From Gemmatimonadales bacterium (GTDB lineage: Bacteria; Gemmatimonadota; Gemmatimonadetes; Gemmatimonadales; GWC2-71-9), in the NCBI GenBank assembly GCA_037189525.1, contig JBBCJC010000003.1, positions 128,001 to 192,000 on the forward strand: 64,000 nt of DNA, in the 5' to 3' direction. Of this stretch, positions 940-8,408 are shown one piece after another. How positions within the stretch are numbered: the first letter of the stretch is position 1; each line of letters starts with the position of its first letter. The translations under genes and the position numbers were made by a program. The notes beneath the pieces are model-generated. The model did no database searches. It saw only the letters and a program-made list of their open reading frames with translations, and was not told the origin of the DNA.

Positions 940-1059
940 GTGTCTAAGCTTACGTATGTCAAGCCGTCGGTGACCAAGATGGGCTCCGTGGCCGAAAAGA
1001 CCGAGGGCGGTTTCAGGGCAGAGATCTTCGAGATCTTCACGATGCGTGGGGCGCTCTGA
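940..1059 (+). CDS. Lasso peptide precursor, MSKLTYVKPSVTKMGSVAEKTE-GGFRAEIFEIFTMRGAL (39 aa)
   Basis: Hand-translated; absent from the ORF track. AGGAG RBS at 928-932, GTG start at 940, TGA at 1057-1059. The leader matches the lasso YxxPx(L/V)xxxGxxxxxTx consensus; the core starts with Gly and has Glu at position 9. Confidence 0.9.
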   Translation: MSKLTYVKPSVTKMGSVAEKTEGGFRAEIFEIFTMRGAL

Positions 1060-1201: not shown

Positions 1202-3760
1202 ATGACCCGCGTTCGCGACGCTCTAGAGCAAGGCACTAGGGCGCTCCGTACTTGGATGTCTAACGGCGGCATTGTCGCTGCCGTTGCCATCCTTGGCGGG
1301 TTGGCCTTTCAAGCCGTCGCTTGGGCGGCGCCTGGCGTGATTACGGCGCGTGCTTACCGCCTTAACATGCTCCTGTCGAATCTCCTGTTCGCGGCATTCT
1401 GGCTTCGAGCCATTCGGAGTCTGCCGCTTGGCGGACGTATTCGGCCGGCCGCGTTCGTAGTTTTTGCAGCCGTTGTTGTAGGCTTGGCCGGGAGTGTGCT
1501 TAGCTCATTCAGCGGCCTTCGAGGCGAGCTGATGCTCGTTGTCGGCGTACTTTATTGGGTCGCCGGGCCCCTCCTCGTCTGCGCGCTGTTGATTTGGCCA
1601 CGTGTATTGAATCGCCACATTCGCCACCAGTACTTGGTCATTGACGTCGGCATCATTGCAATTGCCGTAGTCCTGTTCATCTGGTATGTCCGAGTCGGTC
1701 CAGCGGCGAGTGTTCGCGGTTCGATGTCGTTTGAGGACATGGGCGTCCTTGTGACATCGAGTTTGTTGCTGGCAGGAATAAGTCTCGCTGTTCTCCGACG
1801 GCCAACGCCGGAGTACTCAGTGCCCTTCATGCTCGTCGTGCTTTGGACGGCGGTCATGTTTACCGGCAACTTCGGGCTTTCGTTGTTTGCGGTGCCGGTT
1901 CACTCGATGCAGTATTGGGCAACCCTCTTTTCGATTGGAGGTTTTCTCCTTCCGATTCTTGCTGCAGAGTCACTCCGTATCCGCTACTATCGGGCTCCTG
2001 ATGCTAAGGCCGTCGAAGGTGCCAATCCTATTCCCTGGTTTGCCGTCCTTGCGATCGGTGGCTTCGTCCTCAAAATCGGCATCGAGCAGCTGTCCACTGG
2101 GGTAGGGCTCATCGTCATCGGGGCTGTGGTCACCATGCTCCTGCTCGTGATCCGGCAGGCCATGACGATGCGCCACAACGCCGAGCTCCAGGCCGAGCGG
2201 GCCAATCTCCTGGCGGACGCCAAGATCGCCGCCATGGTGCGCCACACCTCGGACGTCATCATGGTGGTCGACGAGCAGCTCATCGTCAGGTACGCATCAC
2301 CCTCGTCCGAAGCGCTTTGGGGGCGGGCCGCCAGCGTTCTGGTGGGACAGGAGCTGACCACGCTGGTCGAGGCTTCGAGCCGGCGCGAGGTCACCCGTCT
2401 CCTGTCCGAGCGGCTGGCCCGTCCCGGCCAGACCGATCTGGCGCGGGTCCGCGTTCCCGGACCCGACGGCAGTTCGCGCCGGATCGAAGCGGTGGCGGTC
2501 AGTCTGTTGCACGAGCCGTCCGTGCACGGAATCGTGATCACGATGCGCGACCAGACCGAGCGGATCCAGCTCGAGGAACAGTTGGCGCAGGCTCAGAAAA
2601 TGGAGGCCGTCGGGCAACTGGCCGGCGGGGTCGCCCACGATTTCAACAATCTGCTGACCACCATTCTCGGCCATACCGAGGTCGGGCTCGATCTGCTGAC
2701 GGACGACCACCCGGTGCGTGAAGATCTCACCCAGATTCGCCGCGCCAGCGAACTCGCGGCCTCGCTGACCCGGCAGCTCCTGGCATTCAGCCGGAAACAG
2801 GTCGTCGAGCCGAGACTGGTCGACGTGGGCATCTCGCTGGATCAGGTGGTCCGCTTGCTGCGCCGCCTGATCAAGGAACATGTCGAGATCAAGCTGGAGG
2901 TGTCGCGCGATCTGGGGCAGGTGCGGGTCGATCCGTCGCAGCTGGAACAGGTCGTCCTCAACCTGGCCGTCAACGCTCGCGACGCGATGCCCGATGGCGG
3001 CCTGCTGACCATTCAGGCGCGTACGGTGATCGTGCCGGGTCCGCTCGCCGATGCGGTGATTCCGCCGCCGCAGGGCCGGTGTATCGTGGTCGAAGTCGTC
3101 GATACCGGAATGGGGATGGACCCTGCAACCCAGGCGCGCATCTTCGAGCCGTTCTTCACCACCAAACCGATCGGCCGGGGAACCGGGCTGGGTCTGGCCA
3201 GCGTCTATGGAATCGTGAAGCAGAGCGGCGCCGGCCTGGTGGTGCGGAGCGCGCCCGGGAAGGGCAGTACCTTCTCGGTCTACTTTGCCTGGGTCGCTCC
3301 GGAACCCGAACCGGCGACGCCAGCGGCGGTTGCCCCGAGCCGCGAGGGCGCCGCCCTGCCGCGATTTGCCGCGACGATCCTACTGGTCGAGGACGAGACC
3401 GCACTCAGGGAAATTGCGCACAAGGTGCTGGCGCGCGAGGGCTATCGCGTGCTGGTGGCCGCCGACGCCGAGGAAGGGATCACTCTGGCCGAGACCGCGC
3501 CGTTCCCGATCGACATGCTGCTGACCGATGTCGTGATGCCGGGGATGAACGGGGTCGAGCTGGCCCGGCGCCTCCGCAGCAAACGTCCCAACCTTCGCGT
3601 GTTGCTGATGTCCGGGTACCCGGGCGATGACCTGGCCGGCGAGCTCCGCGACCATCAGCGCTTCCTCCGCAAGCCGTTCACGCCGTTCGTTCTGCTGGAG
3701 CATGTCCGGGCCGCGCTGGCCGGTCTCTCGGATCCGACGGCGGTCGAACCGGACCGATAG
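1202..3760 (+). CDS. Membrane-bound hybrid sensor histidine kinase (multi-TM, PAS, HisKA, HATPase, REC)
   Basis: About 9-10 hydrophobic segments in the first 320 aa, then a PAS domain, H-box AGGVAHDFNNLLT, N-box NLAVNARDAM, G boxes DTGMGM and GTGLGL, and a receiver with LLVEDE and TDVVMPGMNG. The start may be ATG at 1256. Confidence 0.93.
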   Translation: MTRVRDALEQGTRALRTWMSNGGIVAAVAILGGLAFQAVAWAAPGVITARAYRLNMLLSNLLFAAFWLRAIRSLPLGGRIRPAAFVVFAAVVVGLAGSVLSSFSGLRGELMLVVGVLYWVAGPLLVCALLIWPRVLNRHIRHQYLVIDVGIIAIAVVLFIWYVRVGPAASVRGSMSFEDMGVLVTSSLLLAGISLAVLRRPTPEYSVPFMLVVLWTAVMFTGNFGLSLFAVPVHSMQYWATLFSIGGFLLPILAAESLRIRYYRAPDAKAVEGANPIPWFAVLAIGGFVLKIGIEQLSTGVGLIVIGAVVTMLLLVIRQAMTMRHNAELQAERANLLADAKIAAMVRHTSDVIMVVDEQLIVRYASPSSEALWGRAASVLVGQELTTLVEASSRREVTRLLSERLARPGQTDLARVRVPGPDGSSRRIEAVAVSLLHEPSVHGIVITMRDQTERIQLEEQLAQAQKMEAVGQLAGGVAHDFNNLLTTILGHTEVGLDLLTDDHPVREDLTQIRRASELAASLTRQLLAFSRKQVVEPRLVDVGISLDQVVRLLRRLIKEHVEIKLEVSRDLGQVRVDPSQLEQVVLNLAVNARDAMPDGGLLTIQARTVIVPGPLADAVIPPPQGRCIVVEVVDTGMGMDPATQARIFEPFFTTKPIGRGTGLGLASVYGIVKQSGAGLVVRSAPGKGSTFSVYFAWVAPEPEPATPAAVAPSREGAALPRFAATILLVEDETALREIAHKVLAREGYRVLVAADAEEGITLAETAPFPIDMLLTDVVMPGMNGVELARRLRSKRPNLRVLLMSGYPGDDLAGELRDHQRFLRKPFTPFVLLEHVRAALAGLSDPTAVEPDR

Positions 3761-4623: not shown

Positions 4624-7600
4624 GTGCAAGATTTCCGGTCGCGAACCGTCGCCTCTTCGTCCACGGTGTGCGCGGCGTCCACCTGCGCAGCTCACGGCGG
4701 GAGGGGTGGGCCGGAATCGGTCACCGTGCATTGGCTACAATGGAGGCCGTCTCTGGCACAGGTTCGCGTGTCGCTGTCATCACGATACGATCCCCGTCGC
4801 GTTGCCGGCGTGGCGGGGCGGGTCGTCAGTGCGCTGGGCCTGCTGGGTCTGGCGGGATGGCTGATCGACTCGCCGGCGCTCGTGCGTCTTCTGGACGGTT
4901 ATCCGCCGCTGGTGCCGAACGCCGGTATCGCGCTGGTGGGGGCCGGCCTCGGTCTGACCGGCCTCGAGCGGGATCGGGGCGAGGTGGCGAGGCTCGGCGC
5001 CAGCATCGCGCTCCTGATCGGGATGCTGACCTTTGCGCAGCATGTATCGTCGCTCGATCTCCGGATCGACGGGATCTTTCTGCCCCGCGACGGCGGAGAG
5101 CTCGTCACCGGTCGCGATCCGGGGCGGATGGCTGCTGTCTCCGCGCTGTCGCTGACGTTGGCCGGCATCGGGCTCCTGGCGCTGCTGGCCGAAGCGCGCA
5201 GCAGCACACTGGCGATCCTGGCGGGCGTGGCCGGGGCTACCGTCGGAACGTTAGGCGGCACGGTGGTGGTCGGCTACGCTACGGGCGCCCTCACCGATCT
5301 TCGGCATGGCATCGTGGCCGGCATGTCGGCCTACGAATCGGTTGCGTTCCTGCTGCTCGGCTTGGGGATGGTCGGATATGCCTGGGAGCACGATCGCCCG
5401 GTTCGCTCGCTGCCGTCGTGGCTGGCGCCGGCCGTCGGGGTTGGCGGACTGACGACGGCTCTACTGGTCTGGAAGGCGCTAACCAGTCTCGAGGGCGATC
5501 GGCTCGATGACCGGCTCGGGGTCGAAGCGTCGGTGGTGCGGCAGCGGGTGGCCGTCGAGATCGACGGGCTGGTCAAGGATCTGGACCGGTTGGCGCGGCG
5601 CGCCATCCGCCTGCCGGCGTTCTGGGAAGTCGATGCGCAGGCAGCGCTGCGGGAGGGCAGTGTCTACGCGGCTGTCGGGTGGGTGGGTGCCGACGGCACC
5701 GTGCGGCGGGCGGCTCCGACGACGGCGGCGCCGATGATTGCGGAGATCGTGAAACAGGGCGTGACGCCGGTGGCCGATACTGTGCGCTTGCTGCGCTATC
5801 CGGCGCAGACGGTGTCGGCCGGGTTGCTGCAGGACGGCCGGTTCCTGGCGCTCCGGGTCGCTTCGTGCGACGAGGACAGGTGCGCAGGCGACATGGTCGG
5901 TTTTTTCGACCTGGCCGCGGTGCTCAGGTCCGGTCTCTCGGCGCCGCGCCGCGAAATCTGCCTCTCGATTACGACCGGTGGCCTCGAGCTGCTGGCTGAC
6001 GACCGGCCCGAATGTGTGTTCAGTCGGGGCGCATCGGCGTATCTGGCTGTCGGCTCGATGTCGTGGACGATCACGGCCGCGCCGACCACGGCGATGATGG
6101 CGTCGGCCGGATCGGCGTTGTCGGCGGTGGTGCTGAGTCTGGGCGTCGTGGTGAGCGCGTTGCTGACGGTGAGTCTGCGGCTGGCGCAGCGATCATGGGG
6201 ATTGGCGCGCGAGGTGGAGCGGCGGCAGGTCACCCGCGCGCTGGAGACCGCGACGGACGGGCTCTGGGAGTGGGACCTGCCGGACGGCCCGATGGCGCGC
6301 CGGGCGATGTGGCGCGGACTGGGTTATGCCTTTTCGGAAACGGACCGCGCGGGATGGGAGGCGCTGATCCATCCGGACGATATCGACGGCGTTCGACGCG
6401 GCGTCGACGAGTATCTGCGCGGCGCGGCGGAAACGCTGAGCCTCGAGTATCGGATTCGCGACGCGCGGGGCCAGTGGCACTGGATCATCGATCGGGCCCG
6501 GGTCACCGAGCGTACCGGGTGGGGCGCCCCGCGACGCATGCTCGGCATCCATGGTGACGTTACGGAGCGGCGTCGCGCGGCGGATCAGGTCCGGACCAGC
6601 GAGGAGCGGTTTCGCGCCATCTTCGACAGCGCCTTCCAGTTTCAAGCCCTGCTCGATCTCGAGGGGCGCCTGCTGCTCGCCAACCGGACCGCACTCGAGT
6701 TTGCCGGTGTGCCGCTCGACGCGGTGCGCGGCAGCCGGCTCTGGGAAACTGCCTGGTGGTCGGAGGCGGATGAGGAGGGGCGGGCCCGGCTGATCGATGC
6801 GTGCCGTCGCGCGGCCGATGGAAAGACGATCCAATATCAGGACGAAGTCACCGGCTCGGGAGGCCGCCGCGCGACGATCGAGTTTTCGGTCAAACCGATT
6901 CGTACACCCGACGGATCGGTGGGACAGCTGCTGGCCGAGGGTCGGGATGTTACCGAGCGAAAGCGGGCGGAGGATGCGCTCAAGGAGCTCGATACGTTGA
7001 GTACGATGGGGCGACTCGCGGCCCGGGTTGCGCACGAGATCAATAATCCGTTGGCCGGGATCCAGAACTCGTTCATGCTGATCAAAGACGCGGTCTCACC
7101 CGATCACCCCTACCATCGGTACGTCGGGGCCATCGGTCGCGAGATCGATCGGATCGCGAGCGTGACGCGTGAACTGTACGGTCTCTACCGCGCCGAGCAT
7201 GCGAACAAAGAGCGCACCTCGGTGGCAACCGCCATCACCGATGCGGTCGAACTGCTCAAACAGGTCAATCGGGCCGCGGACGTCGAAATCAGAGCGGACA
7301 TCGCGGGCGCGCCGGCGATCATGCCGTTTCCCGATGCGCTGATTCGGCAAGTGGTCTTCAACCTGGTCCAGAACGCCGTGGAGGCCTCGCCTCCGCGCGG
7401 CATCGTTTTCGTGACGGCGGATGTCGTCGACGAGGGCGGGAAGCGATGCTTCCGGCTGGCCGTCCGGGATCAGGGCGACGGAGTGCCGGATACGCTCAAA
7501 GAGCAGATCTTTCAGGATTTCTACAGCACCAAGAGCGGACTCAGAACCGGCGGGATGGGGCTCGGGCTCTCGATCGTCCGGAGCTCGGTGCGCGCGTTAG

Positions 7601-7686
7601 GCGGCGAAATCGACATTCGTGAACCCGATGGAGGCGGCGCCGAGTTCGTGGTGCGCCTTCCGATCAATGAGGAGGTGTCCGTATGA
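4624..7686 (+). CDS. Membrane sensor histidine kinase with multiple TM helices and two PAS domains
   Basis: TM region, PAS motifs (DGLWEWD..IHPDD..EYRIR; FRAIFD), H-box VAHEINNPL, NLVQNA, DQGDG and GMGLGL. The true start may be downstream, e.g. GTG at 4768. Confidence 0.9.
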   Translation: MQDFRSRTVASSSTVCAASTCAAHGGRGGPESVTVHWLQWRPSLAQVRVSLSSRYDPRRVAGVAGRVVSALGLLGLAGWLIDSPALVRLLDGYPPLVPNAGIALVGAGLGLTGLERDRGEVARLGASIALLIGMLTFAQHVSSLDLRIDGIFLPRDGGELVTGRDPGRMAAVSALSLTLAGIGLLALLAEARSSTLAILAGVAGATVGTLGGTVVVGYATGALTDLRHGIVAGMSAYESVAFLLLGLGMVGYAWEHDRPVRSLPSWLAPAVGVGGLTTALLVWKALTSLEGDRLDDRLGVEASVVRQRVAVEIDGLVKDLDRLARRAIRLPAFWEVDAQAALREGSVYAAVGWVGADGTVRRAAPTTAAPMIAEIVKQGVTPVADTVRLLRYPAQTVSAGLLQDGRFLALRVASCDEDRCAGDMVGFFDLAAVLRSGLSAPRREICLSITTGGLELLADDRPECVFSRGASAYLAVGSMSWTITAAPTTAMMASAGSALSAVVLSLGVVVSALLTVSLRLAQRSWGLAREVERRQVTRALETATDGLWEWDLPDGPMARRAMWRGLGYAFSETDRAGWEALIHPDDIDGVRRGVDEYLRGAAETLSLEYRIRDARGQWHWIIDRARVTERTGWGAPRRMLGIHGDVTERRRAADQVRTSEERFRAIFDSAFQFQALLDLEGRLLLANRTALEFAGVPLDAVRGSRLWETAWWSEADEEGRARLIDACRRAADGKTIQYQDEVTGSGGRRATIEFSVKPIRTPDGSVGQLLAEGRDVTERKRAEDALKELDTLSTMGRLAARVAHEINNPLAGIQNSFMLIKDAVSPDHPYHRYVGAIGREIDRIASVTRELYGLYRAEHANKERTSVATAITDAVELLKQVNRAADVEIRADIAGAPAIMPFPDALIRQVVFNLVQNAVEASPPRGIVFVTADVVDEGGKRCFRLAVRDQGDGVPDTLKEQIFQDFYSTKSGLRTGGMGLGLSIVRSSVRALGGEIDIREPDGGGAEFVVRLPINEEVSV

Positions 7687-8408
7687 GCGAGCGAGGCCAG
7701 ATTCTTCTCGCGGACGACGAGGAAGTGTTCGGCGCATCGACCGCGGATCTGTTGCGGCGGCAGGGCTACGGATGCGATGTCGTTCCGGATGGGGGTACCG
7801 CCCTGGCTGCCGTGGGGCAGGGGCAGTACGACTTGCTGATCAGCGATCTCGAAATGCCCGGGAACGAGGACCTGACCCTGGTACGGCAGGTGTCCGAACG
7901 GGTGGGCGGGTTGCCCGTCATCATCCTGACCGGGTTTCCCTCCACCCGGTCGGCGATTGCCTGTATCGAACTCCCGGTCGTGGCCTATCTCGTCAAACCG
8001 GTTGCGTTCGATCAATTGCTGAGCAAGGTCGAGGCGGCGGTGGCTCGCTTTCGGTCGTACACCGCGATGCGACGGACCGAAGAGCGGCTACGAGAGTGGA
8101 ATCGCGAAGTCGCGACCGTGGCGGCGCCGGGGGCGGGCGGGGGCCCGGAATCGATCGACGCTTTTTTGACGCTCACGCTGCGCAACGTCATGGGATCATT
8201 GACGGACCTTGGGGAAATGAGTCGCGCGCTGGCGCAAAAACAGCAGGGGCCGCATGCCTGCCAGCTGGTCAACTGTCCGAGGGGGTTGCAACTCCAGGAG
8301 GCGGTACGCGAAACGGTCCAAGTGCTGGAGGAAACCAAAGGCGCTTTTCGCTCCAAGACACTGGCCAACTTGCGACGACAGTTGGAGGTGCTGCTCGATA
8401 CCAACTGA
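7683..8408 (+). CDS. Response regulator (REC plus atypical C-terminal domain)
   Basis: ILLADDE, SDLEMPG, IILTG and YLVKP motifs; ATGA overlap with the kinase stop codon. Confidence 0.9.
   Translation: MSERGQILLADDEEVFGASTADLLRRQGYGCDVVPDGGTALAAVGQGQYDLLISDLEMPGNEDLTLVRQVSERVGGLPVIILTGFPSTRSAIACIELPVVAYLVKPVAFDQLLSKVEAAVARFRSYTAMRRTEERLREWNREVATVAAPGAGGGPESIDAFLTLTLRNVMGSLTDLGEMSRALAQKQQGPHACQLVNCPRGLQLQEAVRETVQVLEETKGAFRSKTLANLRRQLEVLLDTN

Follow-up and report, generated by a model that had tools for sequence, protein, structure and literature searches.

In lasso peptide biosynthesis the B1 protein binds the YxxP motif of the precursor leader, the B2 peptidase cleaves two residues past a conserved Thr, and the cyclase C, using ATP, joins the core N-terminus to an acidic side chain around the threaded tail, in the present case predicted as the Gly1 amine and the Glu9 carboxyl. 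Among the class II peptides (class definition in PMC13352647), those of the fusilassin/fuscanodin type have split B1 and B2 proteins and a YxxP leader (PMC6784204; cited, like the other PMC sources in this text, in excerpt). Self-immunity via ABC transporters has been called pervasive for antimicrobial-type lasso clusters, and the function of the isopeptidase-type clusters, such as those of astexin and sphingopyxin, has been described as enigmatic (PMC9266682). Lasso clusters are also present in 29 marine Gemmatimonadota genomes, where they are assumed to be antibacterial (PMC11316326). The literature, covered at the abstract level and including few subscription papers, shows only predictions for Gemmatimonadota, with no characterized lasso peptide from the phylum, and describes no lasso peptide that acts on a kinase of its own. 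Outside the lasso peptides, the staphylococcal agr locus has a hypervariable region that spans the genes of the processing enzyme, the peptide and the sensor (PMC10482373).

The locus described here was analyzed in a window of 64,000 nucleotides, which corresponds to positions 128001-192000 of contig C3 in a 4.65 Mb Gemmatimonadota genome (window position equals C3 position minus 128000). Judged by its genes, it is a complete lasso operon in the order B1-B2-C-A with the precursor last, in which B1, B2 and C are chained by overlaps of 4 bases and the cyclase and precursor genes lie on the forward strand. The B1 and B2 genes, which the initial annotation of the window had expected near the cyclase, are located directly upstream of it and outside the window. 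The RRE protein B1 (99 aa, C3 126385-126684) matches PF05402 at 53.6 bits, above the cut-off of 23.4, and is the only such match in the genome; the leader peptidase B2 (129 aa, C3 126681-127070) matches PF13471 at 84.1 bits and NF033537 at 91.1 bits, with a cut-off of 33 for the latter. The B2 residues Cys69, His101 and Glu113, which we take to be catalytic by analogy with McjB, are invariant in all 18 homologs. The 623-aa cyclase (C3 127067-128938) enters the window with its last 311 codons at positions 1-938. It matches PF00733 at 144 bits, and its best NCBIfam model is the lasso cyclase NF033535 at 195 bits, which is nevertheless below that model's cut-off of 525. The possibility that the enzyme is a true AsnB, raised by the initial annotation, is countered by the lower scores of the AsnB models (155 and 82 bits) and by the lack of an N-terminal Cys. 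The SGGxDSS motif is found in 19 and the GxxD motif in 18 of 20 aligned homologs, the misses being truncated genes, and the ATP-binding motifs are thus retained wherever the cyclase gene is complete. The closest named relatives of the cyclase carry the label Gemmatimonadota.

The precursor is encoded by an open frame of 39 codons at positions 940-1059 of the forward strand, which begins with GTG one base after the cyclase TAG stop codon (936-938) and is preceded by the Shine-Dalgarno sequence AGGAG at 928-932, inside the last codons of the cyclase. The start one base after the cyclase and the ribosome-binding site inside its last codons had been recognized in the initial annotation, as had the division into a leader (22 aa, 940-1005) and a 17-aa core, which is followed by the stop codon (1006-1059). 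The leader contains the YxxP motif, the conserved Gly and the Thr at position -2 that were noted at the outset, and comparison with the homologs shows the leader Tyr, Pro, Thr, Gly and Thr(-2) to be invariant in all 18 precursors. Against NF033521, the NCBIfam model for lasso leaders, the precursor reaches 18.5 bits, narrowly short of the cut-off of 19. A generic leader-plus-core pattern has two matches among the 157,094 stop-to-stop segments of the genome, one of them the 940-1059 frame, a figure that is rough because the pattern was designed with this gene already known. The 17 homologous ORFs occupy the equivalent position behind a cyclase, and a Shine-Dalgarno sequence precedes the precursor at 17 of the 18 loci; 16 of the 17 homologs combine an ATG start with a Shine-Dalgarno sequence 7-10 nt upstream, and the remaining one was left unscored since its start lies inside the stretch examined. 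All four lasso genes are under purifying selection (dN/dS 0.09-0.26). The ORF is almost certainly a genuine lasso precursor, an uncharacterized one of class II and of ordinary chemistry.

The family recovered comprises 18 precursors, from 17 genomes of the genus and one of a sister genus in Gemmatimonadota, with named loci that repeat them counted once. A cyclase match at E 1e-40 or better is found in 18 of the 22 genomes of the genus, and one further genome has a fragment at a contig end. The precursor profile, run on 401 sampled genomes of the class, matches three, all of the same genus. The 18 cores are all distinct and contain 16 different ring sequences. First, Gly1, Glu9 and Arg14 are invariant in all of them, while the ring residues 2-8 are hypervariable, with an aromatic residue at position 3 in 16 cores and a Glu at position 6 in four. 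Next, positions 10 and 11 are hydrophobic throughout, position 12 is Ser or Thr in 17 of 18, and position 13 takes six different residues. Finally, five cores terminate at residue 15, where the residue after Arg14, as in the longer cores, is confined to Gly, Ala, Pro and Asn. The core in the window contains no Cys, and a single Cys occurs in two of the 18 homologs; together with the acidic residue within positions 7-9, which is Glu9 in every member, this corresponds to the disulfide-free class II.

These features support the class II lasso with a Gly1-Glu9 ring that had been predicted for the single sequence, now across 18 homologs, and the product would have a mass of 1895.97 Da after loss of water, as computed. 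LassoPred uses a minimum tail of two residues (PMC12214591), and in the five cores that end at residue 15 the ring would accordingly lie at or before residues 13/14; with only small residues beyond it, Arg14 is likely the lower plug. Of the plugs proposed initially (F11, M13 and R14), Arg14 is thus the one retained, Phe11 and Met13 not being invariant, and the "8-residue tail" is better described as a loop plus tail. With regard to a threaded topology, the invariance of Arg14 is at most suggestive. Richness in Phe, which had been taken as characteristic of the hydrophobic core, is not a trait of the family. A search of PDB sequences with the precursor profile returned nothing meaningful; the test is weak, as that data set excludes chains under 20 residues.

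The locus resembles the fusilassin/fuscanodin type in its separate RRE and peptidase, its YxxP leader with Thr at -2, the acidic residue at position 9, the lack of a disulfide and the Asn-synthetase-like cyclase. It differs from that type in the gene order B1-B2-C-A, in having no ABC transporter, in its Gemmatimonadota host, in a ring that is hypervariable within one genus and in the membrane kinase that is fixed downstream. Among the 31 rows labeled Gemmatimon- out of 4,749 in the LassoPred table (PMC12214591, supplementary file 3), rows 1095 and 1226 are unnamed members of the same precursor family, both likewise predicted to have a 9-residue ring. Row 1226 has 10 of 17 core residues in common with the window's peptide, as counted by eye, and residues 14, 13 and 15 as its upper-plug options. 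The entries give sequence only and name neither the family nor the peptide nor the neighboring genes. None of the 31 rows is the window's own peptide, and no Gemmatimon- label occurs in the readable files of the supplements to PMC12480086. The exact core, which the initial annotation did not recognize as a described lasso peptide, is likely new; two members of its family had already been predicted, and the peptide by itself adds to an already known lasso class.

Several other lasso loci were seen alongside. In a larger Gemmatimonadota lasso clade (L007, L024-L029, L035-L039, L041 and many of L249-L300) the cyclase is followed by one or two precursors, whose predicted cores have Met, Ile, Ser, Ala, Gln, Glu or Thr as first residue, carry Asp or Glu at position 8 and terminate in a conserved Gly-x-x-Gly-Phe-x-Leu-like tail. 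S9 peptidase genes in convergent orientation usually come next in this clade, and one of these peptidases has a weak match to AtxE2. In a sister clade with Glu8 cores (L020:4624-6384, L248:5839-7293 and L303:362-2485) a hybrid kinase is also the next gene, that of L020 being a soluble PAS-type enzyme that lacks a membrane domain. Six tandem lasso-like precursors with a common His-containing C-terminal motif follow one cyclase at L271:1394-2721. The window's own genome has a second pair of B2-like and Asn-synthetase-like genes (L099, C2:322400-334300), with ABC genes and an S9 peptidase nearby; there is no PF05402 match at this locus, and the leader-plus-core pattern finds no precursor there.

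Upstream of B1, a palindrome GGCAA-N4-TTGCC is located at C3 126260-126273, outside the window. It is found 86-127 bases before B1 in all 14 loci with enough upstream DNA, in 10 of them in the exact form, as against a mean of 0.007 exact occurrences in shuffled controls, and with a matrix built without the window's clade the window's palindrome is the top site in the genome. Before the kinase it is absent in all 18 loci, and no second conserved site was found in the genome scan and relatives. Another high-scoring site, at C3:210841, was rejected, as it lies inside a small conserved gene and is lost beyond the nearest genomes. Since palindrome counts across the genome are no higher than those of a control pattern, no regulon is claimed. 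The consensus of sigma-54 promoters has 10 bases between GG and GC; the palindrome has 9, and this identity was rejected as well. Scans around the cluster gave no sigma-70 site and no Rfam match. Behind the precursor, a 13-bp stem-loop at 1092-1121 of the forward strand (z -2.12 for the fold of 1056-1210) is a possible terminator or RNA stabilizer; it has no T-run and was not called by a terminator scan. Long stems follow the precursor in most of the 18 loci, as judged by eye with no shuffle control.

No ABC domain is encoded within 30 kb of the cluster, the nearest on the contig being about 31 kb away, and none of the neighbors examined is an exporter or immunity gene. Isopeptidase, TonB receptor and sigma/anti-sigma genes are likewise missing among the conserved neighbors. 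Upstream of the window, L001:6500-16029 contains two serine-hydrolase genes, two tandem S9 peptidases and an amidohydrolase, likely a peptide-catabolism block that precedes the lasso operon in much of the genus. An isopeptidase role is unsupported for the nearer S9 peptidase, the one compared, which is closer to general acyl-peptide hydrolases (251 bits with general S9 enzymes vs 76 bits with AtxE2). The S9 peptidases and the amidohydrolase are widely syntenic across the genus, and synteny is therefore not special to the kinase described below.

An 852-aa hybrid kinase begins 142 bases past the precursor stop codon. Its first part, at 1202-2191 of the forward strand, encodes a membrane input domain of about 330 aa with ten predicted helices, a candidate peptide sensor, and the remainder (2192-3760) encodes PAS, HisKA, HATPase_c and receiver domains, identified with Pfam and NCBIfam, in a CckA-like architecture. 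In 16 of the 18 loci the gene directly downstream of the precursor, and on one contig with it, is an ortholog of this kinase. In the other two (G465 and G463) the contig ends, and G463, which is 87% complete, yields only a weak kinase paralog. The genes past the kinase vary by clade, and the kinase is the sole constant downstream gene. In G048 an insertion sequence, presumably IS3-like from its transposase motif, splits the kinase near codon 198 (L097:7454-8761) and leaves the lasso genes intact. No conserved response regulator was found among the neighbors. Window positions 4624-8408 encode another membrane kinase, of 1020 aa, together with a receiver-domain protein; of the genomes compared, just the three closest were seen to have them.

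In none of the five members scanned does the membrane domain match a Pfam family. Its structural model consists of ten long helices with a mean pLDDT of 85, and Foldseek gave no match to it at E 0.001 or better. The best structural match (Z 12.3, rmsd 4.0, 212 residues aligned) is at a level that helical bundles share by arrangement, and the similarity to 7TM bundles is no higher than this common arrangement gives. The closest Atlas neighbors of the domain are unnamed actinobacterial membrane proteins at 0.93, with MASE3-containing clusters at 0.84. The domain belongs to an unnamed family, with 282 representatives at E 0.001, of which 31 were domain-scanned; distant members are fused to GGDEF/EAL or kinase outputs. 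The counts exclude a phylum-wide search with a profile that contained PAS/GGDEF columns. The family is present in 78 of 401 genomes of the order and is widespread without lasso genes. The 22 sensor-domain loci that rank next, all taken from outside the genus, have no cyclase or precursor within 1.5 kb, and the sensor alignment gave no loci in a metagenome scan. In G307 a closer homolog of the sensor lies amid unrelated genes, and the lasso contig of this genome ends within the cyclase. When the sensor domain was modeled in complex with a linear, unthreaded stretch of 30 precursor residues, the score was 0.01, which speaks neither for nor against binding.

Among 78 other Gemmatimonadota-type lasso loci, 42 of which exceed 6 kb, a near-identical pair carries a kinase of the sensor family 1.6 kb upstream of B1; the pair counts as one event and lends slight support to an association. 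A kinase with the same unnamed membrane domain family is seen at L037:78-2498 and L041:39-2486 (reverse strand), divergent from a lasso cluster of the other clade. Three genomes of the genus, G428, G466 and G469, have neither cyclase nor sensor. In G428 (L245:10064-19022) an rRNA operon and unrelated genes lie between a truncated B1 on one side and the final 38 codons of the kinase on the other, an arrangement consistent with a single event that removed B2 to most of the kinase, or with misassembly. The joint absence of cluster and kinase was rejected as proof of coupling, G428 being one event and G466 and G469 being 76% and 84% complete.

Conservation within the kinase is uneven. In a set of 14 genomes the sensor averages 33% identity and the kinase part 67%, compared with 53% in the cyclase and 86% in RpoB; left out of this set were G048 (no RpoB match), G114 (cyclase fragment) and, for want of a whole kinase, G463 and G465. 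In the comparison with the nearest genome, identity is 77% in the sensor and 93% in the kinase part, with dS nearly doubled in the sensor (1.40 vs 0.77) and dN/dS of 0.11 vs 0.06; in five other close pairs the dN/dS of the sensor is 0.15-0.31. Contigs of relatives in two of four public runs span the diverged sensor segment between conserved flanks. Other membrane regions (13 regions) are 86-98% identical. Fast change is common in kinase input regions: those of other kinases range from 64% to 95% identity, and this sensor is the fifth lowest among 22 usable pairs, after two non-orthologous or too short rows were dropped.

The sensor also appears to vary with the core peptide. With RpoB, cyclase and kinase-part distances removed, core and sensor distances correlate at r 0.43 (p 0.004, 14 genomes), a link that the leader does not show (r 0.12, p 0.21), the Mantel p-values being overstated, since kin inflate them and 8 clades underlie the co-variation. 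After additional removal of B1 and B2 distances the core-sensor r is 0.40 over 13 genomes, G467 having no B1. Given RpoB, core distance correlates with the sensor at r 0.49, with the cyclase at 0.58, B2 at 0.55, B1 at 0.25 and the kinase part at -0.05. Core similarity thus follows sensor, cyclase and B2 and stops at the sensor-kinase boundary. When each of the 8 clades is represented by one genome, the plain correlations with the core are 0.42 for the sensor, 0.56 for the cyclase, 0.49 for B2, 0.22 for B1, -0.05 for the kinase part and 0.36 for RpoB, so that the core-sensor value barely exceeds that of RpoB and is below that of the cyclase. As B2, C, A and the sensor are contiguous, linkage alone is able to produce much of this co-variation, an agr-like pattern drawn from linked genes and 8 clades.

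Since the ring varies across the genus while a fast-changing membrane sensor gene adjoins the precursor, the peptide would more probably act as a signal than as an antibiotic. More specifically, we tentatively favor, a little short of an even chance, a lasso precursor operon whose peptide is read as a signal by the adjacent membrane histidine kinase. B1 would bind the leader, B2 would cut two residues past the Thr, and C would close the Gly1-Glu9 ring with ATP, with residues 10-13 forming the loop and Arg14 placed below the ring. The variable face of the ring may then give strain specificity. The peptide would exit via a transporter encoded elsewhere, or reach the sensor through the membrane, and the adjacent kinase would read the variable ring and pass the phosphate to its receiver and on to a regulator that may bind the palindrome, thereby closing a feedback loop; nothing in the data ties the palindrome to the kinase.

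The locus could instead encode an ordinary competitive or antimicrobial lasso peptide, with a ring that diversifies against targets in other cells and a kinase that is an inherited neighbor with its own ligand, a reading we consider somewhat unlikely. Such a history would fit the vertical inheritance of the cluster, for which the cyclase and kinase trees largely match that of RpoB, as well as the equally syntenic catabolic genes, the common occurrence of the sensor family without lasso genes and the antibacterial role assumed for the marine clusters (PMC11316326). However, the lack of a nearby ABC exporter or immunity gene contrasts with the pervasive ABC self-immunity of antimicrobial-type clusters (PMC9266682), the kinase is the only downstream gene that never changes, and the correlation with the core ends at the sensor-kinase boundary. 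Less probable, and in our estimate unlikely, is a kinase that regulates the lasso operon via the palindrome in response to another cue, or that senses foreign lasso peptides, its own peptide not being the activating ligand; the fixed adjacency (16 of 18), the operator-like site that is conserved ahead of B1 and the absence of an evident export route all agree with this, yet by itself it leaves unexplained that sensor distance follows the distance of the core and not that of the leader. Finally, a precursor that is processed without giving a threaded Gly1-Glu9 lasso (a branched-cyclic product, another ring or a silent cluster) would account for the cyclase score below the curated cut-off and the leader model missed by 0.5 bit but is very improbable in view of the intact catalytic motifs in B2 and C, the purifying selection on the four genes and the invariant Glu9 and Arg14.

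Returning to a peptide read by its neighboring kinase, the locus, in which a variable membrane kinase is a conserved partner and an exporter is lacking, is a candidate for lasso-based signaling that lends itself to testing, and the 16 natural peptide-kinase pairs with different rings make the idea of a lasso peptide as a native signal directly testable by cross-activation. Even if the signal idea fails, the family provides a short scaffold in 18 natural versions, in which three residues never change, for the study of cyclase tolerance.

Among systems of known layout, the locus is similar to the astexin/sphingopyxin type in having no ABC exporter and in its linkage to signal-transduction genes; those clusters carry GntR, an isopeptidase, a TonB-dependent transporter and sigma/anti-sigma pairs, and an inner-membrane hybrid kinase is found here instead. 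Another parallel in organization is agr. It is possible, with somewhat less than an even chance for this broader proposal, that the knotted peptide is the strain-specific autoinducer of the genus, co-diversifying with a ten-helix kinase and subject to feedback through a conserved operator, and hence a convergent counterpart of agr in a diderm phylum; if so, it would be the first ligand for a widespread unnamed sensor domain. The relation is one of resemblance and membership is not claimed, as Pfam and NCBIfam scans of the locus gave no family match to AgrB, AgrC or AgrD. Unlike agr, the locus would produce a macrolactam lasso in place of a thiolactone, has a CckA-like hybrid kinase with no cognate response regulator at the locus, and resides in a diderm host. 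Like agrBDCA, it combines a maturation enzyme, a short precursor and a multi-helix membrane kinase, and, as judged from 8 clades and linked genes, it resembles agr in its variable peptide and sensor part and its conserved kinase part.
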